A stretch of DNA of 46,454 nt from Candidatus Doudnabacteria bacterium (GTDB lineage Bacteria > Patescibacteriota > Doudnabacteria > UBA920 > 2-01-FULL-46-14). Under the pieces are notes generated by a model. The model made no database searches. It saw only the letters and a program-made list of their open reading frames with translations, and was not told the origin of the DNA. Both the position numbers and the translations under genes were made by a program. Position 1 is the first letter of the stretch. Each line of letters starts with the position of its first letter. The stretch is taken from contig JAHFJD010000002.1 in the NCBI GenBank assembly GCA_023246055.1, positions 1 to 46,454 of the forward strand. Direction: 5' to 3'. This document shows positions 3,602 to 46,454 of the stretch, piece after piece.

Positions 3602-3630
3602 ATTATATCAACAACAGCTATTGACGTCAA
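3602..3630 (-). promoter_or_regulatory. Candidate sigma70-type promoter of the rpsL operon
   Basis: Minus strand reads TTGACG, a 17-nt spacer, then TATAAT. The -35 lies in the palindrome TTGACGTCAA (3621-3630), which can also serve a plus-strand promoter. Confidence 0.6.
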
Positions 3631-3740
3631 CCCCGATTTATGCTAGTCTTTATGGTCATTATCGCCAATGTGTTATAACGGCTATAATGGTCTCTGTTTC
3701 GTAGTTTCGTTATTTGGAAAAACATGTCAGGAGGGGAAAA

Positions 3741-4540: not shown

Positions 4541-4594
4541 CTCGCACAGTAGTTGTTCAAAGTCTCAACGAACAAGTGCTGTGCGAGTTTTTTT
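4541..4594 (+). terminator. Rho-independent terminator
   Basis: Stem ctcgcacag / ctgtgcgag with inner stem ttgttc / gaacaa, followed by a T7 run. Confidence 0.8.
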
Positions 4595-4615
4595 ATTTCA
4601 TAAATTTTTGCCAAC

Positions 4616-4654
4616 AAAAAATGCTCCGTATTCCAAATTTCGAAATACAGAGCA
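4616..4654 (-). terminator. Rho-independent terminator of the radical SAM gene
   Basis: Minus strand reads tgctctgtatt...aatacggagca followed by TTTTTT. It is convergent with the 4541-4594 terminator. Confidence 0.7.
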
Positions 4655-4671
4655 CTGCTACACGAAGTTCC

Positions 4672-5637
4672 CTAGCCAATGCTTATCGTCTGGCCAATCG
4701 CAGACACAGAGTCCGACAGGCTCTTCAGCCACGAGGTCCCGCTATCGTCTGACACGGCACTAGAGATGCACCCGCACTGCTTGCAATCAGCTTTCTCGGA
4801 GAGGATGCATTGATTGATTCTGTTGCCCGCGGCGTCGAACGAATCAACCAGCGTGGACATCCCGCAAACAGAGGGTGTCATTTTGATCGTGTGATCAGGG
4901 TGTAGCCTTTTAATCTGCTCGGAACTGACGACCAGGAAATCTCCGCATTGCTTTTTCAGTCCCAGCAACTCGTCGACAATCCAAACCCTTTGCTCGCGTG
5001 ACAAAAGGTAATCATGGTCCTTTGCTCCACGAATCGGAGTCATGGTGCTGACCATGATCCCGTCCGCGAGTCCGTTGTTGCTCCAGGTCTGCATGATCTT
5101 TCCCACTTGACGGTAGTTCACTGCGTTGAGCGTCGAATGAATTATCACCGGAAAATATCCGGACGAGCGCGCTCGTCCGACATTTTTCAATATCCGATCA
5201 TAGAGTCCTTGCATCCTCCTCACGTTATCGTGAGTAGCGGAATCTCCCCCATCAATTGAAACAACGTGAGTGGTGTTTGGCAATCCAGTAAGCAGAGGCG
5301 TGGTGCCAGAGATCACGAGCCAACTCCAGGGAATGGCCCCGGCTAGCTTCTTCAAAAGATTAGGTCGGACATAAGGCTCCCCGCCAACCATGCTCACATG
5401 GAGGTAGCCTTGCCTTCGCATTCTCAAAAAAAACGCAAAAACATCCTTGTCGCTCATTTCCTTCACCCGTGGCTGCCTGCGCCAATAGCAATCGCACCCG
5501 ACAGGGCAGCGATCAGAAACGTTAAAGCTGAATGCCAGAGGTAGACCGCTAACAACTCGGCGGTAAGTCCCCTTCAGAACCACCGCTGTATTCCTGGTCA
5601 AAAATCTCAATATACCGGTAGCATCTTTACACAGCAT
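4672..5637 (-). CDS. Radical SAM protein with a Cys-rich C-terminal auxiliary domain (HpnH/DUF3463-like architecture)
   Basis: ATG preceded by AGGAGG. Contains SFNVSDRCPVGCDCYW, GGEPYVRP, and C-terminal CGMS...C...CKQCGC. Block order resembles HpnH-type enzymes. Family assignment is from memory. Confidence 0.7.
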   Translation of the reverse strand: MLCKDATGILRFLTRNTAVVLKGTYRRVVSGLPLAFSFNVSDRCPVGCDCYWRRQPRVKEMSDKDVFAFFLRMRRQGYLHVSMVGGEPYVRPNLLKKLAGAIPWSWLVISGTTPLLTGLPNTTHVVSIDGGDSATHDNVRRMQGLYDRILKNVGRARSSGYFPVIIHSTLNAVNYRQVGKIMQTWSNNGLADGIMVSTMTPIRGAKDHDYLLSREQRVWIVDELLGLKKQCGDFLVVSSEQIKRLHPDHTIKMTPSVCGMSTLVDSFDAAGNRINQCILSEKADCKQCGCISSAVSDDSGTSWLKSLSDSVSAIGQTISIG

Positions 5638-5771
5638 TTACTCCTCCTATATACGGAAATTTGAAATTCCTTGCGAGCAGTATAGCCAACTCTGGAAATT
5701 TTTTCAATTTGCCACCTGGCCTATTTTATGCGAATCTTAAACCAGTACAATCCATGCCCAAAGGAGGCGGA

Positions 5772-7316
5772 ATGCTGAAACGATTGAGAGTAGTTGTTCT
5801 AAAACCGAGTAAATATGGTTATAAAAACGACCGTTGGAACGGTTATGTCCAGCGCTTTTGGCGAGGTTTCATGCCGAATGCAACAGTACCTCATTTGCGG
5901 ACTATGACCCCGGAGCGGATCAGCGATTGCCTCCTCGAAACATACGCAATCGATGAATACGTGCAGACTGATCTGGATTATCTCAAGCTCCTTCATGGTG
6001 ATGAGCCAACACTCCTCGCCCTGGTTGGCGTGCAATCACACCAATTCCATCGCGCGCTAGACCTAGGCGCGTACGCTCTGAAACATGGCTGCCGGCATGT
6101 AGTAATTGGTGGTCCACACCCTATGACGTGTGACACCAGTATGCTTCAGGGGCGCGGTGTGTCATTTGCTCTAGCCGAAGCTGAAATGATTTGGCTCACC
6201 ATTCTCCACGACGCCATATGCGGCGAGCTCCAGCCAGTATACGGAGTCGGGCAGCGCTGGCAAACTGAACTCCGAGCATCAGCCATGATCCCACCATCTC
6301 GTGAGGATATGAAGCGGTATGTTGTGCCGCTGCTTGGTGTTTATCCTGCTCGCGGTTGCCCATACACATGCAATTTCTGCTCCGTGATAAAAATCGCGGG
6401 CAGGCAGATCAGAAGCCAGGACATCGGAGTAACGATGGAAACTCTCTGGCGCGCAAAAAAATCTGGGATCAGATTCATTCTCTTCACATCTGACAATTTC
6501 AACAAATATGCCGACGCAGTAGCCTTGCTGAATCAGATGATTGAAGAAAAACTGGACCTGCCATTCATGTGTCAATGCGATACACAGGTATCGCGGCAGG
6601 AAGAATTCATGGGGCTCTTAGGTCGAGCTGGGTGTTTTCAAATCTATGTCGGGGTCGAATCACTCGATCGAGAGACACTCCGCAAGGCCCGCAAGAACCA
6701 GAATCACCCCCAGCAGTATGGGGAAATCGTCAGGTTGGCAGGAAAGTACGGATTTTCTTCCCACTTCTCCAACATTGTGGGATTCCCAGATGATACTGAA
6801 AAATCAGTCAGGGGTCATATCGCGGAAGTTTGCAGGATCAGTCCGGCAGCGCTCTCCGCTTACATTCTTACGCCTCTGCCGGGCACGGAACAGTACGACG
6901 AATTTCTAGCTGGAGGGAGAATTTATGAAAAAAACCTCGACTGTTTCGACGCCTGTTGTCCGACCTGGCACCATGATCATCTCTCTCCGCAGCAGCGAAT
7001 CGAGTTGATGTTTGAATTCTACCGAACGTTTTATTCGGATGAAAAGCTCGTGAAAAGCTTCACCACCCGGAACCGACAGATGAGCCGTACGTCAGACGCC
7101 ATAGCCCGAATTTTCCCGATTTTCTATCGGTATGCGGCTTGGAGACAGCGGCACCCCATGGAGGGAGGTTTGGGAAAAGTGAGGCGTGACCATGTTTCCG
7201 AGTATCTTGATTTGCGGAAAAAACTTTTCGGGTACGAGCATGTTCCTCTGCCGCGAAGTCTCCAGCTTTCTCCTACCGATCAGGGACTCAATCGTCAGGT
7301 CAAGATTGCCATGTAG
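5772..7316 (+). CDS. B12-binding-domain radical SAM protein (class B-like)
   Basis: ATG at 5772 follows AAGGAGG (5761-5767). N-terminal Rossmann-like B12 region, ARGCPYTCNFCSV CxxxCxxC motif, and a long C-terminal extension. Confidence 0.75.
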   Translation: MLKRLRVVVLKPSKYGYKNDRWNGYVQRFWRGFMPNATVPHLRTMTPERISDCLLETYAIDEYVQTDLDYLKLLHGDEPTLLALVGVQSHQFHRALDLGAYALKHGCRHVVIGGPHPMTCDTSMLQGRGVSFALAEAEMIWLTILHDAICGELQPVYGVGQRWQTELRASAMIPPSREDMKRYVVPLLGVYPARGCPYTCNFCSVIKIAGRQIRSQDIGVTMETLWRAKKSGIRFILFTSDNFNKYADAVALLNQMIEEKLDLPFMCQCDTQVSRQEEFMGLLGRAGCFQIYVGVESLDRETLRKARKNQNHPQQYGEIVRLAGKYGFSSHFSNIVGFPDDTEKSVRGHIAEVCRISPAALSAYILTPLPGTEQYDEFLAGGRIYEKNLDCFDACCPTWHHDHLSPQQRIELMFEFYRTFYSDEKLVKSFTTRNRQMSRTSDAIARIFPIFYRYAAWRQRHPMEGGLGKVRRDHVSEYLDLRKKLFGYEHVPLPRSLQLSPTDQGLNRQVKIAM

Positions 7317-9603: not shown

Positions 9604-9668
9604 GAAAAATACCGACAGATTTCATGATCATGAAATCTGTCGGTAAGGAGGAAAAACTGTTCCAGGAT

Positions 9669-11914: not shown

Positions 11915-12443
11915 TTAGATCTCCGCCACCGCCGGTTTGCCGATGGTGCCGGTGTTCTTGCTTTGACTGTCCTCTTCAAGGTTTACCTGGCGAATATAAT
12001 TCGCGCGTGCTTTAATTTTCGCCAAGGCTTTCCTCAACCTACGTGCCGTATCTAACCCATGAGCAGATTCGAAGTCGTGGATATCCTCTTGTAAATTTGC
12101 AATTCCGGTTTCTGTGTTTCGGAGCCGCCGTTTTCTCTTGGACCGCCCCAAATTTCGTATCGCCTTCTTTTCGGCTTCAGTGATGTCGACCGCGTGTTCC
12201 ATTGTACTTCTGCTCCCCTTGTTATCGCGCGAAATAACTTCGATCCGTTTCCTCTTCTCGTGCACGAACGGCATCGTCCGATGGTCCATCTCGTTTTCGA
12301 TAAAACGCAGATTTTTGCACTATCAGCGCGCCCTCGAGCACATCTCTTGTTTCTGGCCGCAGATTCGGCCGTTGGAGTTTCTTCTGAATGCTCGCGATGT
12401 CCCTCAATGTCCTATCTGTACTGCCTTCTGGTACGTACTCCAT
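11915..12443 (-). pseudogene. Two overlapping basic/coiled-coil ORFs (73 aa and 124 aa) in different frames; possibly one frameshifted gene
   Basis: ORFs 12222-12443 and 11915-12289 overlap by 68 nt. They are Lys/Arg-rich with no recognisable family, and lie between tRNA-Pro and a tRNA-like gene. Confidence 0.3.
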
Positions 12444-25492: not shown

Positions 25493-28400
25493 TATGACGA
25501 AATTAATTATTCTCCCTGGCACATAGATGAATTTGCCAATTTTCTTGCCGGCAAGGTGTTTCGCAATCACAGGATCGCCTTCCGATGTCTTTCTTGCATC
25601 GGCTTCCGTAGCATTGATATCCAACTGCACCGTCCCGCGTACTCGCCCATTGACCTGCACCGCAATTTTTACAAACTCATCTTTCATAAAGGCAGGATCA
25701 TATTCTGGCCACGGTTCGAGGTGAACCGATGTTTTGTGTCCAAGCTCACTCCACAATTCTTCGGCAACATGCGGTGCAAACGGAGCGAGGAGCTTCAACA
25801 ATATTTCTGCCTCAACGTTACCGGCGGGTGAATTATCTAATTCATTTGCCAAAATCATCAGTGCTGACACAGCAGTGTTGAATCTATAATTTTCAATATC
25901 TTCTGTAACCTTCTTGATTGTCTTGTGCAGTATTGTTTGAAGTTTAGAATTTGGAATTTCTTTTGAAATTTGAAATTTGAAATTTGAAATTCGGTATACC
26001 TTCTCCAACAATCTCCGGACGCCGATTATCCCGCGTGAATTCCAGCTCACTGTTTGGTCGTGGGGTCCCAAAAATAGCTCATACATGCGCAAAGTGTCTG
26101 CTCCGTAAAGCTTAACTATTTCGTCAGGGTTTACTACATTACCCCGACTTTTGCTCATTTTCTCACCATCCTCAGCCAGGATGATCCCATGCGGCACGCG
26201 TTTGGTGTAAGGCTCGGCGACTGGCACGATTCCCTGATCATACAAAAATAAATTCCAAAATCGCGAATACAATAAATGCAGAGTCGTATGTTCCATGCCG
26301 CCGAAATAAATATCCACTGGCAGCCAATGTTTCAGAAGCTTCCCATCAGCCAATTTAATCTTATTATCAGGATCAGTGTACCGGAGATAATACCAAGAAC
26401 TGCCAGCCCACTGCGGCATAGTGTTGGTTTCTCGCTTGGCCTGCCCGCCACAGTTCGGGCATTTCACACTCACCCACTTGTCTATTGCAGCCAGCGGAGA
26501 CTCCCCGGTTCCTGTCGGCTCGTATTTTTTCACATTGGGAAGCTTTACCGGCAAATCTTTTTCTGGCACTGGCACTGTCCCGCATGACGGGCAATGAATA
26601 ATCGGTATGGGTTCGCCCCAGTATCTCTGCCGCGAAAACACCCAATCACGGAGTTTATATTGGATTTTTTTAATCCCGTTTACAAGTTCAATTATTTCCC
26701 ATTTCGCCTTTTCCGAATCCATGCCATTGAATTTAGAGGAATTTATCAATGCACCATCACCTGAATAACAAATTAAGCCTTTATAATGGGGGTTATGGGC
26801 AAGCATATCCCAAACACTTTTTTTACTTCTAATCAAGGGCTCCCACTCTGTAAACTTTTTAAACCATTCTTCAGCACGTTCTAAAAAGTTTTTATGAACT
26901 TTATTTTTCATTACTAAAATATTCTCATTCCCAATAATCTCAACCCAGGCGTTATCTTTGATATGCTTCTGCACCAAGTTCACGAATTCATTAATTTGAT
27001 CTTTTTTTAATTCTACCCTGATATGTTCGCGGCCATTTGTGGGACTGGCAGCCAACGTAAAATTTATTCCTTTATTCTGTAATTGCTTTTTAAATTCATC
27101 ACTACCCTCTAAAGTCACAGTAACAACAATTGCTTTCCAAATGTTTCGCGGAGCTATCACTGGCCTAATAAGTAAACCGTATTTAATAGCAAATTCAAAA
27201 TCCCGCTCGTCATGCGCTGGCACGGCCATGATCGCACCAGTGCCATAGCCCATCAAAACATAATCAGCAACCCAAATCGGTATTTTTTCGCGAGTAGCAG
27301 GATTGATCGCCTTTACACCTTTCAATTCCACACCAGTCTTTTCTTTCTCAAGCGCTGACCTCTGAATATCAGTTTTCCTCTTCGCTTCTTCGACGTATTT
27401 CTCAATCTCTTTGATATTTGTAATTTGAGATTTGAAATTTTGTAACAGCGGATGCTCCGGTGCCAGGACCACATACGTCGCACCAAATATCGTGTCAGGA
27501 CGGGTAGTGAACACTTTGATGGCTTGCCCCTCTCCCCAGGCCTGGGGAGAGGTTGGGAGAGAGGTCGCTCTCAACAACGTTTCCAGAACAGCCGGTTCCT
27601 CTTTCCCACTCATATGTGGCTCGCTACCATTAACTCTGTTCAAATTAACACCTAATTTACGGGCAAAAGCTTCTCCGTCGGACATTGGCACGACATAATC
27701 CCTCGAATCATAGAGCAATGTAAATCTCTGCGCATTGCGTTTGATTTTTTCAAAATCAAAGCCTTTTTTGCAAGCCGTGGTAACCGAAGCACGAACTTTT
27801 TCGTCTAAAAACTTTCCTGAAAACGGAGTACATAACAATACTACCCCTTTGGCTTTCATCCCTCTTTCCAACAAACGCAATGCTACCACGCCGCCAAATG
27901 AATGACCGACTATGACTGTATTCTCATTAATATTACAATTATTAATAACAAATTGTGCTTGTTCTTCATCGTTTGGTTCCGAAGAGTTCGGCAGACTGGG
28001 CATTTGGACTCTGTGACGCAATTTTTCCAATTCAAACTTTAACCATGGAAAAAGATGACTGCTTGGAGAGCCGTTCCGGCCATGCAAGATCAAAAAGTTA
28101 GGATTTGTCATCCCGGGCTTGACCCGGGATCCAGAATCCGAATCCTGGATTCCCGCCTGCGCGGGAATGACAGATAACAGGAACTCTATCTCCGCTCCCT
28201 CGCTCTTGCCAATCCAGTTTTCCTGCTGGAGTTTGACTTGTGACGGCCACTCGGGAAGTTTTTTTAGACCTTCGAGGAGCTTTTCAGCGTATGCGGTGAT
28301 TTGGAGATACCATTGCCGCAGTTCTTTTTTCTCTACTGGCGTGCCACAGCGTTCGCATTTACCGTCAATGACTTCTTCATTCGCAAGACCAGTTTTGTCC

Positions 28401-41454: not shown

Positions 41455-43109
41455 TTACGCCCCAGGATTTCTGGTCACAAGGTTACTGACAATCGTCACA
41501 ATGGCATAAGCCATGATAATGATGACAATGCCGATGACAGCGCCGGTGATGGTTTTTTTGGCTTTTTCCGTGGCTTCCTCATTGCCGCGCGCGGCAATAT
41601 ACTGAAACCCGCCGACTAGCAAGAACAGGACAGCAATGCCGCCAGCAAAATACAGCATCCAGCCAATAGCCCTGGTGAGCAGGGAACCGAAATCCCTGAT
41701 ATCGACGAGGTAGTTTGGGGCAGGGTTTTGGATTCCACCGCTGCCACCTCCACCTGTGCCAGTATTTCCTGCACCGCCTGAGTTAGTGTTGTTTATTCCG
41801 CCACTATTAGTTCCCGCATTACCGGCACCAGCATTTGAATTCTGCACGTTAACAGAAATTTCTGCGGGAACAGCTTGGTTCCCTGAACTATCTTGACCTG
41901 TCGCCACAAATGTATGCTCGCCATTGGAAAGCGTACTGGTATCAAGATTGACAGTAAAAAAGGGGCGGCGACTCCGCTTCCCATAGAAACGTCATCGGCC
42001 TTGATGTCGGGACTAATATCATCCCGACTGCTCCCCCAATCAGATGCATAGACCGTAACTGGAACAGTACCAGAGACTGTTGAATCGTCTGCCGGGCTAG
42101 TGAAATGAATCGTCGGCGACTTTGGATCGCAGGACAGCCATTTGCCCGCGGCATTGGGAGAAACTCTCACGCTCACCGAAAGGCTTGAAGGATCAGAAAT
42201 ACTAGGCTCAACGGTGAGTACGGACTCGAGGCTATGAGCAGCTATTTCTGCGTCAGAAAGACCGTCGCGGAAAACGTCAATGGTTTTTTGTGCGCCTGGT
42301 TGAAGTGTGTACGTATAAACCAGCATGTCCTGCGTACGTATTGGTGGACCCGTTGGACATAGATGTTGAGCCGTGCCCTGGAACCCGCTATAGAGGTGAT
42401 TTCGCACCGTAAAAGTAACTGGGACTGATTTATTGTTGGTCAGTGTCATTTTTGTCTGCCACCCGTTAGGCCAATCGGGCCAGTTGTGCCAAAAATTCCC
42501 ATACGATGTAAAGAACACCTTCTGGTCAGGGTCCCAACTAGTTGGAATATCTGAACCCCAAACATCCCATCCCTTAAAATACGCATCTTCTAAACTATTT
42601 TGTGATGATCCCCGGATCGTGAAAAGATGAGGATCAAATGAGTAAAACGGCTTCGCTGAAATCCCATTGTAATCTATGCTCTCAATGATGACTGTGCCTG
42701 TCCACTGGAAGGGCCTATTATCTTGGACCCCAGGAAAAGAAACATTCATAAAATTCCAGTTCGTCCCTATCCATGGATTTGAAGGAGTGTAACCGCTAAT
42801 TTCGCGGGGTCCGTAATACGCGGAGCAACCGCCCGTTACATGCGGACAATCGATTACATAGTTTGGATCGTCCGATATGAATGAAACTTGTACCCATGTA
42901 GTATCTGGATTCGGATTGCCTATTCCAGCAGCAAAATCTTGGACTTCCCAGCCTGGAGAAATCTCTTTGGCATACGCTTCCATTCCGGTATATTCAAAGC
43001 GGATCTGTTTTGTGGCAGCTGCTGCTGGCAAGGCAAAATAAAATCCTCCTAAAAAGACACCTAAAATCAAAAAAAAATTGATAAAGTTCAGGAGGTTATT
43101 TATTTTCAT
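41455..43109 (-). CDS. Surface protein (signal peptide, Ig-like domain, Gly/Asn-rich linker, VirB2/TrbC-like two-TM anchor) interrupted by a -1 frameshift
   Basis: The zero frame (43109 to 41793) and the -1 frame (about 41990 to 41455) join at a C4T6 run (41956-41965). The joined read is ...GSGVAAPFFTVNLDTSTLSNGEHTFVATGQDSSGNQA. The C-terminus is AIGWMLYFAGGIAVLFLLVGGFQYIAARGNEEATEKAKKTITGAVIGIVIIIMAY. Confidence 0.6.
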
Positions 43110-43157
43110 GGCAACTTTGAATTTGGTTTCGGTGTAGGAATGACCTAACCATTTTCT

Positions 43158-43185
43158 GTCATTCCTGGGAAATGCGGGAATCCAG
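43158..43185. repeat. PE-2 element (half copy, intergenic)
   Basis: gtcattcctgggaaatgcgggaatccag. Confidence 0.7.
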
Positions 43186-43193
43186 ATAACGGA

Positions 43194-43460
43194 TCATTTC
43201 TTCAACTTCAATTTCTCCACAATCTTTTCGTGCCGTTTTTCGTCTTCGCCCTTGAGGTATCGAAGTAACCGGCGGCGGTTGCCAACCATCTTCAAAAGCC
43301 CACGGCGGGAGTGGTTATCCTTTTTGTGCTTCTCCAAGTGCTTTGCCACCTCTTCGATTTCCGTTGTCAAAATCGCGATCTGCACCTCGGGAGACCCGGT
43401 ATCACCCTTATGGGTCTGAAATTTTTTGATTATGGTTTCCTTTTGCTTATTCGACAGCAT
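43194..43460 (-). CDS. rpsO: 30S ribosomal protein S15
   Basis: ATG at 43460. Contains [14 protein letters not shown] and [15 protein letters not shown]. Confidence 0.93.
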
Positions 43461-43552
43461 GAAAAGAATATTAACATAAAGTTTCCTAGCCTGCAAGTCG
43501 TCAAAATTTCGTTTTTCTCTCCTGGGACGGGAAGAATCAAGGAGGAATCTTG

Positions 43553-43607
43553 CCTCTCCCTCTTCCATTCCCTCGCCCCCTTACGGGGAGAGTGTTAGGG
43601 TGAGGGG
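43553..43607. repeat. PE-1 element upstream of rpsO
   Basis: ccctcgccccc-ttac-ggggagag-tgttagggtgagggg. Confidence 0.75.
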
Positions 43608-43706
43608 TAGAGATAAGAATCTTAATTCGTTCCCGGCCCGGGAGAGGAGCGAATCGCGATATTTCGTGCGATTCGCTCGGGACTGTATTGAAATGACTGC
43701 CTGCCT

Positions 43707-43811
43707 TCCCGAAGCCAAGCTGTTGAATTTGTCTCGGCTCGGGCGCCGAGTTCCAGAAACGAGTTTGGGTGCTAGATTAACATCCAAAATTGTGTCCAAA
43801 ATTTGACATTC
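43707..43811 (+). repeat. R105 block, copy 1 (identical to 44760-44864)
   Basis: Base-by-base comparison gives 105/105 identity. It contains the hairpin ctcggc-tcgggc-gccgag, the block ttccagaaacgagtttggg, and the -35 TTGACA. Confidence 0.9.
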
Positions 43812-43830
43812 GATTAAAAAAGAATAAACT
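43803..43830 (+). promoter_or_regulatory. Candidate promoter of paralog 1, predicting a leaderless or near-leaderless mRNA
   Basis: TTGACA, a 16-nt spacer, then TAAACT. The ATG lies 6 nt after the -10. Confidence 0.5.
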
Positions 43831-43836
43831 GGAAAT

Positions 43837-44151
43837 ATGAGTGAACTCACCAAAGAACATTTTGACAAAGGGTTGGAAAAACCTATTACCAATAAATATC
43901 TACTTGATTTTACAAGGGAGATTATTTTTCCGGGTGTTCGGGAAATTGTTCGAGAAGAGAATATAAAATTCAGAGACGATATCCTCACCAGCAATTACAA
44001 ACTGGCAAAAAAACTTGATCAGATTCTCAAAGAACAACAAGCGATCACCGCCGGCTTCAAACGGCTACAAGATCGAATTAACTACCTCGAAGCTGTAGTC
44101 AAAGTCTTGGCTGAAAAAGAAGGTCTGCAATTTTCTCCCCCAGAATCCTAA
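43837..44151 (+). CDS. Small coiled-coil protein, paralog 1 (104 aa)
   Basis: ITNKYLLDFTREIIFPGV aligns with VTKRYLGEFTETVLLPAM of paralog 2. A terminator follows. Confidence 0.65.
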   Translation: MSELTKEHFDKGLEKPITNKYLLDFTREIIFPGVREIVREENIKFRDDILTSNYKLAKKLDQILKEQQAITAGFKRLQDRINYLEAVVKVLAEKEGLQFSPPES

Positions 44152-44154
44152 ACT

Positions 44155-44173
44155 GCCGCATAGGCGGTTTTTT
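44155..44173 (+). terminator. Short rho-independent terminator
   Basis: ccgc-atag-gcgg followed by a T6 run. Confidence 0.5.
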
Positions 44174-44249
44174 GTTATTCACTTTTCAAAGTACTTTCTT
44201 TCCGCGCGAATCCCATCCTTTGACCAATCTTGAATCCATTTCTCTTTGC

Positions 44250-44276
44250 GTCATTCCCGCGGAGGCGGGAATCCAG
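44250..44276. repeat. PE-2 element (half copy) inserted between degenerate and intact module blocks
   Basis: gtcattcccgcggaggcgggaatccag. Confidence 0.75.
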
Positions 44277-44279
44277 CCC

Positions 44280-44367
44280 TCAAAGAACTATCCGCAACTC
44301 CTAAATCCACAATTGATAATTCTGAACTTGGGAGTGAGAAAGTCGAAGCTCTGCTTGCGACTTTCTC
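44280..44367 (+). ncRNA. Module A1: conserved block, short hairpin, GAACTTGGGAGT, hairpin 2 (candidate structured RNA or recombination module)
   Basis: tcaaagaactatccgcaactcctaaatccac; aatt-gat-aatt; gaacttgggagt; gagaaagtcg-(12 nt)-cgactttctc. A degenerate extra copy of block 1 lies at 44184-44240. Confidence 0.4.
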
Positions 44368-44518
44368 GTGGCTGTCTAAAAGAACCGGTTTCTGTTTCGC
44401 TCGCGTCTCCGCCTGGCCGAACTGTTTACAACCCACAGTGCGATCAGATTGAGCGCTATCAAAATCATGAACATCATTATCCCAACAGCGTACTGATCTG
44501 CGGTAGCCTGCTGCGGAC

Positions 44519-44728
44519 TCATCGTCGCCTCCATAAAAGAGGTTCATGGCATGACGGCGCATGGTCACTGGCAATCGCCGCGAACCAGTTAATGGCTGCG
44601 GCGACGATCACTGCTGATAATACTGGTGCAACCTTGATCAGATACAACGGAGCGAAGAAAATTCCGAGACCGAACAGCACCAAGCTCAGCACCATCGCGC
44701 TAAGGTTCATCCGAAACCAAATGTACAT
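44519..44728 (-). CDS. Small two-TM hypothetical membrane protein (69 aa)
   Basis: Hydrophobic ORF between modules. There is no supporting motif. Confidence 0.3.
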   Translation of the reverse strand: MYIWFRMNLSAMVLSLVLFGLGIFFAPLYLIKVAPVLSAVIVAAAINWFAAIASDHAPSCHEPLLWRRR

Positions 44729-44759
44729 TTAAACCCCCTTGAAACTGTTTTGCTCACCC

Positions 44760-44864
44760 TCCCGAAGCCAAGCTGTTGAATTTGTCTCGGCTCGGGCGCC
44801 GAGTTCCAGAAACGAGTTTGGGTGCTAGATTAACATCCAAAATTGTGTCCAAAATTTGACATTC
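44760..44864 (+). repeat. R105 block, copy 2 (identical to 43707-43811)
   Basis: 105/105 identity by direct comparison. Confidence 0.9.
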
Positions 44865-44883
44865 AGTTTAAAAGGGCTAAACT
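44856..44883 (+). promoter_or_regulatory. Candidate promoter of paralog 2, predicting a near-leaderless mRNA
   Basis: TTGACA, a 16-nt spacer, then TAAACT. The ATG lies 7 nt after the -10. Confidence 0.5.
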
Positions 44884-44890
44884 TGGAAAT

Positions 44891-45172
44891 ATGAGCGATA
44901 ATGAACTTGACGAGCCGGTAACCAAAAGGTACTTGGGAGAGTTTACAGAAACCGTCCTGTTGCCTGCCATGTCCTCGATGATGGATGAAAAATTGAAACC
45001 CTTGGGGGACGATGTCCAAGCATTATCTGCTAAAGTTACTACTTATCTTGAACTTTCTGACAAACGTTATTTGGAACTCAAAAACAAATACAGACTGTTG
45101 GGCAAATGGGTCAAACAAATCGCTGACAAAACCGGAGTGAATATCGACATTACAGAACTGGAAAAATTCTGA
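44891..45172 (+). CDS. Small coiled-coil protein, paralog 2 (93 aa)
   Basis: ATG at 44891 (MSDNELDEPVTKRYLGEFTETVLLPAM). Homologous to 43837-44151. A terminator follows. Confidence 0.65.
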   Translation: MSDNELDEPVTKRYLGEFTETVLLPAMSSMMDEKLKPLGDDVQALSAKVTTYLELSDKRYLELKNKYRLLGKWVKQIADKTGVNIDITELEKF

Positions 45173-45192
45173 CAAATTCTTTAACAGCTTAA

Positions 45193-45214
45193 CCGCCACA
45201 TAGGCGGTTTTTTT
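45193..45214 (+). terminator. Rho-independent terminator
   Basis: ccgcc-acata-ggcgg followed by a T7 run. Confidence 0.7.
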
Positions 45215-45216
45215 AG

Positions 45217-45351
45217 CTTTCAAAGAGCTTTCCGTAACTCCTAAATCCACTTGTATCACAGATTTCTCGATCGAGAAATCTGTGATACAACCGAACTTGG
45301 GAGTTGGAGGAAACGACGTGCATGTTGCGCGCGCTTCCTCCGAAAAAAACG
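45217..45351 (+). ncRNA. Module B: conserved block, 40-bp perfect palindrome, GAACTTGGGAGT, hairpin 2
   Basis: ctttcaaagagctttccgtaactcctaaatccac; ttgtatcacagatttctcga/tcgagaaatctgtgatacaa (45251-45290); ccgaacttgggagt; ggaggaa-(32 nt)-ttcctcc. Confidence 0.4.
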
Positions 45352-45713
45352 ATCAATCCTCCTTGATTATACTCTGACATCCGTGTCAGAGGCCTTGGAT
45401 TTTAGGCTTATATTTATGATTGCGAAGCTTTTTCACCTGAATTGATGATTCAAGTGCCACCGCACGCTTCAGATGCAATGCCGGAGTATTCACTCTCGGG
45501 CGGCCCTGCTCTTCCGGAAGAGCTGTGTCCGCTGTCCGTCCTGAAAGACTTCAGGCAATAGTCGCTGGGTATCACGCCAGTTTCCCTTTGCCAAATAGTC
45601 CACACCTTCAGGAAAGCTGCAAGACGAATCTCGCAACAGGTTCCGCGTTTGTGGACGCGGCCGAAGACAGAATCCGAAAAATTGCTTTCTCGGAGAGTCT
45701 TCTGGATGCAAAG

Positions 45714-45995
45714 TTACAGTAGTAAAGAGTCTACTACCTCCAGCCACTCAATCCCGTTATGGGTGGCCACGGAAATTGCTTCGGCAATCTCGCTAAGATT
45801 GCCGAATTTCGCCGCAACTTTTAGTTGCGACAGAAACCCTTGATGGTGGGCATGCGCCCACATTGCACTATTGGACTCTTCGGCCCAATTAGCGCAGTCC
45901 ATCGAACAGCAGGCTATGCCGTTCGGTTCAACCAACCGGGCCATGACCGGATGGTTGAAAAACTCTTTTTTGCAATAATAACACTGCATCTGCAT
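45714..45995 (-). CDS. Hypothetical Cys-rich (zinc-ribbon-like) protein (93 aa)
   Basis: CYYCKK...CCSMDC near the N-terminus. There is no family assignment. Confidence 0.4.
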   Translation of the reverse strand: MQMQCYYCKKEFFNHPVMARLVEPNGIACCSMDCANWAEESNSAMWAHAHHQGFLSQLKVAAKFGNLSEIAEAISVATHNGIEWLEVVDSLLL

Positions 45996-46004
45996 TTTTT
46001 TCTC

Positions 46005-46292
46005 CTAACCCACCTGCTTCTTGCGAAGTTCAGGTGTTATGCGGGTATGTTGCGCGGCTTTCATTGCGCCTTCCGTGACCATACAAACACGGCCTGTAGA
46101 AACTTTTAGGGTTATTCTCCCATGGGTGGCGCCCCAATCTTTCCTTGCGAAAAGCAACCTGGATACTTTCTTTCTTCTTGCTGTTTCAAATTCAGCAACC
46201 ACAATGTGTGGATCCCAGGTCCCTCCAGAGGCGGGCAGGCAAGCCGGGGATGACAAACTTTTTAACGAAAATAACCAGATAGCTTTCCGCAA
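46005..46292 (-). CDS. Hypothetical protein (up to 95 aa; the N-terminal part may be repeat-derived)
   Basis: The ORF includes a PE-5 core (46224-46244), translated as ACLPASGG. The true start is uncertain. Confidence 0.3.
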   Translation of the reverse strand: MRKAIWLFSLKSLSSPACLPASGGTWDPHIVVAEFETARRKKVSRLLFARKDWGATHGRITLKVSTGRVCMVTEGAMKAAQHTRITPELRKKQVG

Positions 46293-46306
46293 AGAATACT
46301 ATTGAT

Positions 46307-46439
46307 CTTTCAAAGAACTATCCAAAACTTCCAAATCCATTTGTTCCACAGTTTTAACGATCGTCAAATATGTGGAACTTCTGTTTTCCAGAAACGACTT
46401 TGGGCACCAGGTAGTAGAACCTTGCGGTACACTACCTGG
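46307..46439 (+). ncRNA. Module C: conserved block, hairpin 1, TTCCAGAAACGACTTTGGG, hairpin 2 (PE-4 short form); it continues beyond the window
   Basis: ctttcaaagaactatccaaaacttccaaatccat; gttccaca-(20 nt)-tgtggaac; ttccagaaacgactttgggcacc; ccaggtagt-(15 nt)-actacctgg; then cttcggctaacatgg, homologous to the R105 interior. Confidence 0.4.
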
Positions 46440-46454
46440 CTTCGGCTAACATGG

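Follow-up and report, generated by a model that had tools for sequence, protein, structure and literature searches.

Two Families of Nested-Hairpin Repeats Punctuate a Single Variable Gene Island in Candidatus Doudnabacteria

Introduction

The described systems closest in form to the repeats analyzed here are attC sites, including those in clusters of attC sites lacking integron-integrases (CALIN), repetitive extragenic palindromic (REP) sequences with their bacterial interspersed mosaic elements (BIME) and REPIN arrangements, intercistronic RNase III hairpins, and the pdif sites of Acinetobacter plasmids. They are compared below with two families of nested-hairpin elements, X and Y, in the last 3 kb, after rpsO (43194–43460, minus strand), of a 46,454-nt stretch from a Candidatus Doudnabacteria bacterium (hereafter the window). 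The window is the entire contig JAHFJD010000002.1 and ends at position 46454, so reading beyond that point is impossible. The X/Y family exists, is restricted to one island, co-varies in its pairing, and has a strand bias. Together with the structured elements hp0 and E, X and Y punctuate one variable island, the ORFan genes of which encode membrane and secreted proteins. Candidate phyla radiation (CPR) bacteria have tiny genomes, and to our knowledge very few regulatory RNAs or mobile-DNA mechanisms have been described in them. X and Y are narrowly distributed structured intergenic repeats, unusual in that, within a CPR lineage, they are confined to one variable island and delimit its units; they appear to be previously undescribed, no description having been met in Rfam or in the literature searched.

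A preliminary description of the same DNA had proposed tandem modules of four ordered parts, namely conserved single-stranded blocks alternating with hairpins of variable sequence, as a candidate family of structured RNAs or recombination sites. The modules do represent a real, non-chance family with relatives in other genomes, but the four-block unit resolves into two elements, X and Y, plus gene-linked 3′ hairpins. Structured RNA and protein-recognized hairpin DNA are still the leading explanations; identity with IS200/IS605 ends or attC sites, however, failed the tests run, there being neither RYYYAAC/GTTRRRY boxes nor dispersed copies, and no gene for a transposase or an integrase in the examined sequence.

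Like attC sites, X elements are imperfect inverted repeats with conserved outer boxes and mismatches and a center that varies in sequence and length (inserts of 12–14 or 38–40 nt, with arm position 7 invariant in 13/13 copies); one site follows each small, mostly ORFan gene of the array, and cassette-sized indels are bounded by sites. However, the X arms, AACTCC.../...GGGAGTT, carry AAC/GTT outermost, and the flanking bases (CCGC, CCGT, CCAG, and others) do not fit RYYY. No IntI or tyrosine-recombinase domain was found in the scanned open reading frames (ORFs) of the window or in the island-flanking genes of the related loci L001–L005, which are partial genomes. In attC the recombinogenic strand is the bottom one, the complement of the strand that encodes the cassette, whereas the better-folding strand of X is the coding strand. 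In further contrast to attC and CALIN arrays, some units here, with their own promoter and terminator, are reversed, and there are only one to four copies per island.

REP, BIME, and REPIN sequences are likewise intergenic imperfect palindromes in mosaics with conserved linkers, here hp0-Y-X-hairpin 2, hp0-X, and X-Y. REP/BIME hairpins fold in mRNA 3′ of genes and are linked to mRNA stability and termination, a feature in which X and Y are proposed to resemble them. REPs, however, number tens to hundreds of dispersed copies and are tied to a REP-associated tyrosine transposase (RAYT), whereas X and Y occupy one island, syntenic between genomes; no RAYT (Y1 HUH) transposase was seen in the sequence examined, which includes partial genomes. 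Unlike miniature inverted-repeat transposable elements (MITEs), X arms are not flanked by duplications and the copies are syntenic with homologous genes across genomes. The locus also differs from IS200/IS605 elements and TnpB/IscB guide RNAs, since neither the window end nor the related islands hold tnpA, tnpB, or iscB, the neighbors being ORFans of 32–216 amino acids (aa). A match to TIGR arrays was rejected on account of their geometry.

Intercistronic RNase III hairpins, as in the phage T7 early region and the rpsO-pnp leader, are also long imperfect helices with conserved internal mismatches between same-direction cistrons, in which the helix and not the tip is recognized; the X arm sequence, however, is more conserved than in the known sites. 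The XerC/D-dependent pdif sites share with X the bounding of small gene modules by short palindromic sites; their recombinase is encoded elsewhere, as that of X would be, and most long copies of X have inverted arms around a 6-bp center (CGATCG, intact in 5/8). Against this likeness, the hairpin arms vary between copies, the hairpin is absent from six short copies, and similarity to the dif consensus is not established.

Pairing and Strand Preference of Element X

Element X consists of a left arm AACTCCTAAATCCAy, an insert, and a right arm (cc)GAAyTTGGGAG(T), the arms pairing with each other. The insert either is short, with two conserved subtypes, or is a 38–40-nt palindrome (hairpin 1). Gapped-arm pattern scans, local scans, and a covariance-model search, with the addition of contig L040, yielded 14 distinct copies, six short and eight long: three in the window (A1, B, and C), one in L001, four in the L007/L011 genome, three in L017, two in L032, and one in L040. 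The evidence base of 14 copies from about six genomes or contigs is thus small. The arms are near-invariant, with AACTCCTAAATCC in 11 of the 14 copies across genomes whose proteins are ∼70% identical. With filters off, the covariance model found X in the whole 46-kb window only at 44296, 45236, and 46326.

Self-complementarity of the long copies is maintained by compensatory change, as the preliminary description had anticipated. When hairpin 1 and the arms of seven long copies were aligned, 79.8% of cells were paired and 10 pairs had changed on both sides; the covariation score was reached by none of 500 shuffles, and slid controls paired at 31–40%. Individual copies have different hairpin 1 arms (TATCAC, TTCCAC, TACCAC) that remain self-complementary, perfectly so in the 40-nt palindrome of B and to 83% over 18-nt arms in C. 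This covariation demonstrates selection for self-complementarity, which by itself fits RNA and DNA alike.

The pairing of AACTCC with GGGAGTT noted earlier was borne out, and with it the picture of conserved single-stranded blocks changed: they are mostly paired with each other, the minus-strand arms forming a 13-bp basal helix that runs into hairpin 1. The reading strand, taken as plus in the preliminary description, is probably minus, as judged by folding energies and the G·U pattern. At arm position 7 all 13 copies have T·G on the plus strand (C·A on the minus), an invariance that makes it uninformative on strand. At positions 10, 12, and 14, some copies form Watson-Crick pairs, and 11, 8, and 7 of the 13 copies, respectively, have A·C on the plus strand; position 14 also switches from A-T to T-A. 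Because A·C on the plus strand is G·U on the minus, the helix is continuous on the minus strand only. Folding of the plus strand, which was first argued from the T·G at position 7, was dropped for this reason. On the minus strand, the 13-bp arm helix has a single C·A mismatch and stacks on hairpin 1, compared with a 9-bp helix and a 6 × 6 loop on the plus. Folding energies on the minus and plus strands were −41.7 vs. −34.2 kcal/mol for A1, −70.1 vs. −63.9 for B, and −49.2 vs. −38.5 for C (6–11 kcal/mol better on the minus), and X with hairpin 2 folded better on the minus strand in 9/13 copies.

Hairpin 1 also has a counterpart outside the island. A stand-alone palindrome at 9610–9645 shares ACAGATTTCnnGATCnnGAAATCTGT with hairpin 1 of B, with 22/26 core positions matching, and looks like an intrinsic terminator because of a T-run on the minus strand; the resemblance suggests a terminator-type palindrome as the origin, or a second role, of the long X inserts. 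X and hairpin 2 themselves were not called by a terminator scan of the window, which found only the terminators of two paralogous genes described below and unrelated sites, and no consistent −35/−10 lies inside X on either strand. Two other identities were tried and rejected. Sequestration of the Shine-Dalgarno sequence by the AGGAG of the arm was dismissed as no start codon lies at a usable distance. Hairpin 1 carries the parS half-site-like TGTTCCAC and GTGGAAC ∼20 nt apart, but parS itself (TGTTNCACGTGNAACA, a contiguous 16-bp palindrome) had no match in the window at ≤2 mismatches.

Element Y and Other Structured Elements

Element Y is a nested inverted repeat of ∼92 nt, in which 22-nt inverted arms, each itself a small imperfect palindrome, enclose two small hairpins. 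Five full copies were found, one each in L001, L011, and L032 and two in L017. Besides the truncated copy of module C, the window has two Y remnants, which lie before the paralog promoters and lack the inner hairpins; TTCCAGAAACGANTTTGGG occurs at 43751, 44804, and 46386. The minus strand of Y folds better in 4/5 copies, by 7–12 kcal/mol. Its consensus fold on that strand is one long hairpin with 26 G·U cells vs. 4 A·C cells, a G·U count somewhat inflated by the structure having been predicted on the minus strand itself.

This second family redistributes the parts of the modules first described. The initial block of each module, TCAAAGARCTWTCCNNAACTYCNAAATCCA, does occur exactly three times in the window (44280, 45220, and 46310, all on the plus strand; no matches in shuffles) but is composite: only its right part, AACTCCTAAATCCAy, recurs in the repeat family elsewhere, and its left part, TTTsAAAGwnCTnTC, is linked to paralog terminators. 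The second block, CCAGAAACGAnTTTGGG, also occurs three times as reported but belongs to Y. The hairpins exist as described, except that hairpin 2 of C (46408–46439) is no counterpart of hairpin 2 of A1 and B, being the first inner hairpin of Y; copy C is a hybrid, the left half of X fused to Y. The supposed degenerate module at 44184–44240 matches only the left motif of that block, over 15 nt (TTTCAAAGTACTTTC) with 13/15 positions identical, and is not a degenerate whole module (alignment score 22; shuffles 15 ± 2.8, maximum 26).

Element E, a candidate ncRNA or boundary element, is an imperfect hairpin of 90–130 nt, CTCTCCTGGGACGGGAA...AGGAGGAATCTTGCCTC...GATAAGArTCTAAT...TTCCCGnCCCGGGAGAG, with a second hairpin (GAGCGAATCGCG...) after it. 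Besides the window, where it has a 39-nt insertion, it is present in L001 (4768–4895), L017 (2215–2366, minus), L032 (388–512), and L007 (∼3620–3700, minus). Another conserved non-coding stretch, ∼330 nt long and containing GCTCCTCAACGGGCAC...GAATrTGAAC, follows Y in L001 (5665–5988), L011 (∼12030–12290, minus), and L017 (∼200–420, minus) and may be another RNA gene; it had no Rfam match. X, Y, and E likewise matched no Rfam family: a gathering-score scan of the window gave tRNAs only, and E-value scans of window positions 43100–46454 and of L001 positions 4550–6050 gave weak chance matches to microRNA and small RNA models, at ≤28 bits against cut-offs of 33–120.

The Gene Island and a Candidate Role of X and Y in Transcripts

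Both ends of the island are conserved. In L001, L007/L011, L017, and L032 one end holds E and a LOG-family gene, in place of which the window has rpsO; the other holds Y, the ∼330-nt conserved stretch, and a PolX-like gene, in L001 and L007/L011, where the sequence reaches that far. The genes between these flanks differ completely between genomes. They encode proteins of 32–216 aa, most of which, including nearly all of the short ones, are predicted to be membrane, secreted, or Cys-rich proteins, and Pfam, PHROGs, and PDB-sequence searches found no known domain in them except one FliL-like domain. As such, they are candidates for host interaction in an episymbiont. A recombinase, transposase, reverse transcriptase, or nuclease domain was found neither in the scanned ORFs of the window nor in the surroundings of the island in L001, in keeping with what was first noted for the window.

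Nearly all island genes lie on the strand of the flanking genes, which is opposite to that used in the earlier description of X. Along the direction of the genes, Y is followed by a gene, hairpin 2, X, another gene, and so forth, up to E and finally LOG or rpsO; the paralogs do not follow this scheme, being inverted units, each with a promoter and a terminator of its own. The stop codon of a minus-strand gene is usually followed directly by hairpin 2 and X, and in L001 and L017 an X copy is also found 22–26 nt ahead of the following gene's start codon. In L011, L032, and L017, Y precedes the ribosome-binding site of the first cassette gene by 20–60 nt. The 52-aa protein encoded beside A1 has a homolog in L017 (48 aa, 1576–1722) with the same placement relative to hairpin 2 and X, and the hairpins 2 beside the two genes are homologous, with a compensatory A-T to G-C change.

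We tentatively read X and Y as protein-recognized RNA stem-loops at cistron boundaries that fold as single strands of the minus strand, and put this reading somewhat short of an even chance. They would be lineage-specific modular stem-loops, acting most simply as RNA in the transcripts of island genes. The basal helix of X, in which one C·A mismatch is invariant and as many as three pairs are G·U, carries a variable tip (a 4-bp stub or a 20-bp hairpin) and may be what a host protein recognizes, because the arm sequence and its imperfections are conserved and the tip merely keeps its pairing. The likeliest partner would be a double-strand-specific RNase or another RNA-binding factor, and the elements might delimit, process, or stabilize individual cistrons, a role like that of intercistronic RNase III sites or REP/BIME hairpins. 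In that case, cassettes would be gained and lost as a by-product of occasional recombination between repeat copies. Transcription of X and Y, the protein partner, and the effect on processing or stability are parts of this model that we infer. If the elements are signals for RNA processing or stability, they would give the lineage its own way to organize multi-gene transcripts.

In favor of an RNA role, most island genes have the minus strand as their coding strand, the palindrome at 9610–9645 is terminator-shaped on the minus strand, and the scanned ORFs contain no recombinase or transposase domain. Several points weigh against it. The conservation of the arms exceeds what a plain stem needs and so fits any sequence-specific recognition, that by a recombinase included; the G·U argument is equally valid for single-stranded DNA of the minus strand, and the G·U count of Y is inflated as stated above. 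The elements are confined to one island, as general RNA-processing signals need not be, and X is not a canonical terminator because it has no U-tract. Furthermore, A1 and B face the 3′ ends of plus-strand paralogs and have no downstream minus-strand gene, and two Y remnants lie before paralog promoters, where minus-strand transcription is not obvious.

A different RNA-based explanation is that the modules are independent small RNA genes, such as antisense regulators of the neighboring small hydrophobic proteins in the manner of type I toxin-antitoxin systems. Many cassette genes do encode membrane peptides of 32–69 aa whose 3′ ends are overlapped or abutted by X and hairpin 2, and a promoter-like site (45426–45399, minus) lies upstream of B. 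However, no consistent promoter or terminator surrounds the copies, X also follows genes of 149–216 aa, and the favored folding strand is sense rather than antisense to the membrane-peptide genes, which leaves this the least probable of the explanations considered.

Distribution of X and Y

The gapped-arm scan recovered one further Doudnabacteria genome from a species-representative collection and 27 metagenome stretches. About half of the latter were rejected as chance or unrelated matches, namely tRNA D-arms (L012, L016), low-complexity AACTCC/GGAGTT palindromes (L010, L021, L023, L033), and coding sequence. The block-1 pattern had no match in genome contigs or in viral contigs, and the gapped-arm and hairpin-core patterns had none in viral contigs. 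All X and Y copies come from about six closely related Doudnabacteria-like genomes or contigs, where they are intergenic and within one island of small ORFan genes. Outside the island, the sole X match among the loci scanned, which include partial genomes, was a degenerate remnant beside a distant paralog homolog in L038; five more distant paralog homologs (L035, L039, L041, L043, L045) had neither X nor Y nearby.

This distribution bears on whether X and Y could be selfish miniature mobile elements of the MITE or REPIN type, mobilized in trans and without a host role. Their nested inverted repeats with conserved termini, the BIME-like mosaic hp0-Y-X-hairpin 2, and the palindromic arms of Y, as in REP doublets, would suit such elements. 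On the other hand, the only off-island match is the remnant in L038, all true metagenome matches are in island context, no target-site duplications flank the arms, and genomes agree in where the elements lie relative to homologous genes; a selfish origin therefore seems improbable, only a little less so than free-standing small RNA genes.

Signs of Rearrangement at the Elements

Several differences between the islands point to rearrangement at X or Y. L011 has one X where L032 has two at the matching place, and the two genomes differ by exactly one cassette, the ends of which lie in the X arm. The left flank of the L011 element (hp0 and linker) is homologous to the flank of the first X of L032, and its interior and hairpin 2 are homologous to the second, such that the indel unit runs from the X interior through the right arm, hairpin 2, and a 159-aa gene to the left arm of the following X. 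Independent assortment between genomes is seen for X subtypes, types of hairpin 2, and neighboring genes, and X and Y swap places around the paralog cassette, with X-gene-Y in L001 and Y′-gene-X in the window and L040. Identical flanks surround X in eight L001-type and four L007-type contigs from mostly different samples, which argues against frequent shuffling.

These observations raise the leading alternative, which is that X, and Y with it, are folded-DNA or core-type recombination sites for small gene cassettes, comparable to attC or to Xer-dependent pdif, with the recombinase encoded elsewhere in the genome. Related genomes differ wholly in island gene content and retain X, Y, hp0, and E at the junctions; homology switches inside an X arm in the one-unit indel of L011 and L032; the same X subtype occurs beside non-homologous genes, and the same hairpin 2 and gene beside different X interiors; copy C is an X/Y hybrid; and X and Y have changed places around the paralog cassette. 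The attC-like anatomy of conserved arms with mismatches and a length-variable tip, along with the frequently intact CGATCG center, would also fit, and recombination sites explain the island restriction, the conserved arms, and the indel well. However, no integrase, Xer-like, serine, or HUH recombinase was found among the scanned ORFs of the 46-kb window or the 15-kb L001 locus (both island flanks included), the RYYYAAC/GTTRRRY boxes are absent, AAC/GTT is at the outer and not the inner helix end, and the better-folding strand is the opposite of that in attC. Cassette polymorphism is lacking among the eight L001-type and four L007-type contigs, and short-homology or slippage events between any repeats would yield the same indel. 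We consider a role as recombination sites rather unlikely on this balance, although it would amount to a new cassette system in a phylum for which none is described in the literature searched.

Slightly more doubtful still is the bolder form of this idea, in which X and Y would be the sites of an integrase-distal cassette system in CPR bacteria, with small membrane, secreted, and coiled-coil genes captured, excised, and reshuffled at a fixed chromosomal hotspot, a functional analog of integrons and pdif modules with unrelated site sequences. Whether they act in RNA or in recombination, X and Y are a marker ready for use in finding such islands in metagenomes.

Paralog Units and Upstream Elements

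The window has two divergent paralog genes, both on the plus strand, whose proteins are 24% identical to each other. Each has its own sigma-70-like promoter (TTGACA-16-TAAACT) and an intrinsic terminator. The products are coiled-coil proteins without assigned function, with only weak coiled-coil (DUF7310) matches in Pfam, PHROGs, and PDB-sequence searches. A homolog 73% identical to paralog 1 is encoded in L001, a locus of Candidatus Doudnabacteria GCA_001779975.1, where AACTCCTAAATCCAC, a 40-nt palindrome centered on CGATCG, and GAATTTGGGAGTT are directly upstream of the paralog promoter and TTCCAGAAACGATTTTGGG comes after the terminator. The motif TTTsAAAGwnCTnTC also accompanies the paralog terminator in other loci: in L001 and L040 it comes after the terminator, in L039 immediately before.

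Every paralog promoter seen has an X or a Y remnant right in front of its −35 hexamer (L001, where the distance is 7 nt, both window copies, and L040). The arms could accordingly be double-stranded DNA half-sites (inverted AACTCCyAAAT) for a transcription factor co-regulating the island units, with hairpin 1 as an unrelated terminator-like palindrome between them; conserved arm sequence, an island restriction that fits a local regulon, and the occurrence of a hairpin-1-like palindrome on its own at 9610–9645 are consistent with this. Most copies, however, are not beside a recognizable promoter, and the arm spacing of 13 nt in short copies vs. ∼40 nt in long ones is not tolerable for a simple dimer. 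The arms alternate between Watson-Crick and G·U pairs and show an A-T to T-A switch, both of which indicate selection for intrastrand pairing, and Y has 22-nt arms plus structured inner hairpins. Half-sites are thus an improbable explanation of the arms, if a shade less so than selfish elements.

The coordinates of the features are collected in Table 1. The two upstream units, which are non-coding, are 93% identical, compared with just 24% for the proteins encoded downstream of them; from sequence comparison, this contrast would reflect either gene conversion or a constraint on hp0, the Y remnant, and the promoter far stronger than that on the coding sequence.

TABLE 1. Coordinates of repeat elements, associated hairpins, and neighboring genes in the window.
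Feature	Position	Strand	Description
X copy A1, short form	44296–44335	−	13-nt insert (4-bp stub) between left arm AACTCCTAAATCCAC and right arm GAACTTGGGAGT; 34.7 bits (covariance model)
Hairpin 2 of A1	44336–44367	−	Abuts stop of minus-strand 52-aa gene; arms 10/10 complementary
X copy B, long form	45236–45305	−	Arms around perfect 40-nt palindrome 45251–45290 centered on CGATCG; 93.2 bits
Hairpin 2 of B, GGAGGAAACG/CGCTTCCTCC	45306–45341	−	Directly abuts X helix; arms 9/10 complementary
X copy C	46326–46378	−	Variant left arm AACTTCCAAATCCAT and hairpin 1; right arm replaced by Y 5′ arm; 67.6 bits
Y element copy in module C	46384–46454	−	5′ arm TTCCAGAAACGACTTTGGGCAC and first inner hairpin 46408–46439; ended by contig end
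Element E	43517–43678	.	Long imperfect hairpin and following hairpin; island end next to rpsO here, LOG-family gene in other genomes
Upstream unit of paralog 1	43704–43835	+	Hairpin hp0 43704–43742, Y remnant 43749–43802, promoter-like TTGACA-16-TAAACT 43803–43830
Paralog 1, 104-aa coiled-coil ORFan	43837–44151	+	Intrinsic terminator 44150–44176
Paralog 3′-flank motif TTTCAAAGTACTTTC	44184–44198	+	Recurs before X arm: A1 44280–44295, B 45217–45235, C 46307–46325
Two small membrane-protein genes	44376–44728	−	69 aa (44519–44728), 52 aa (44376–44534)
Upstream unit copy 2, before paralog 2	44757–44888	+	93% identical to copy 1 over 132 nt
Paralog 2, 99 aa (93 aa as called by others)	44873–45172	+	Intrinsic terminator 45191–45215
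93-aa Cys-rich ORFan gene	45714–45995	−	Between X copies B and C
Stand-alone perfect 36-nt palindrome TACCGACAGATTTCATGATCATGAAATCTGTCGGTA	9610–9645	−	Between convergent genes; TTTTT follows on minus strand

Other Features of the Window

A short hairpin repeat, GTCATyCC-N-GGGAwyC, is present in five copies, at 43158, 44250, and 28107 on the plus strand and at 28171 and 46254 on the minus strand. The copy at 44250 is inside the ∼80 nt that separate the 3′ motif of paralog 1 (44184) from the second copy of the motif before A1 (44280); this segment resembles, as far as its sequence suggests, an insertion with a duplicated target. An ORF of 186 aa at 44172–44732 (plus), annotated by the gene caller of another assembly, spans this repeat, X copy A1, hairpin 2, and the antisense of the two membrane-protein genes, and is almost certainly spurious. 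Between module B and the 93-aa gene, ∼320 nt within 45352–45700 are without a convincing ORF and hold the promoter-like site at 45426–45399 (minus), a hairpin at 45370–45393, and a TATAAT-AAGGAGG string reading into hairpin 2 and X of B; the region could be a decayed cassette or a small RNA. Finally, nine intergenic sites within 11458–43602 have GC-rich hairpins of the form CCCCTCCCC-N-GGGGAGGGG, which are probably the generic terminator-like hairpins of the organism.

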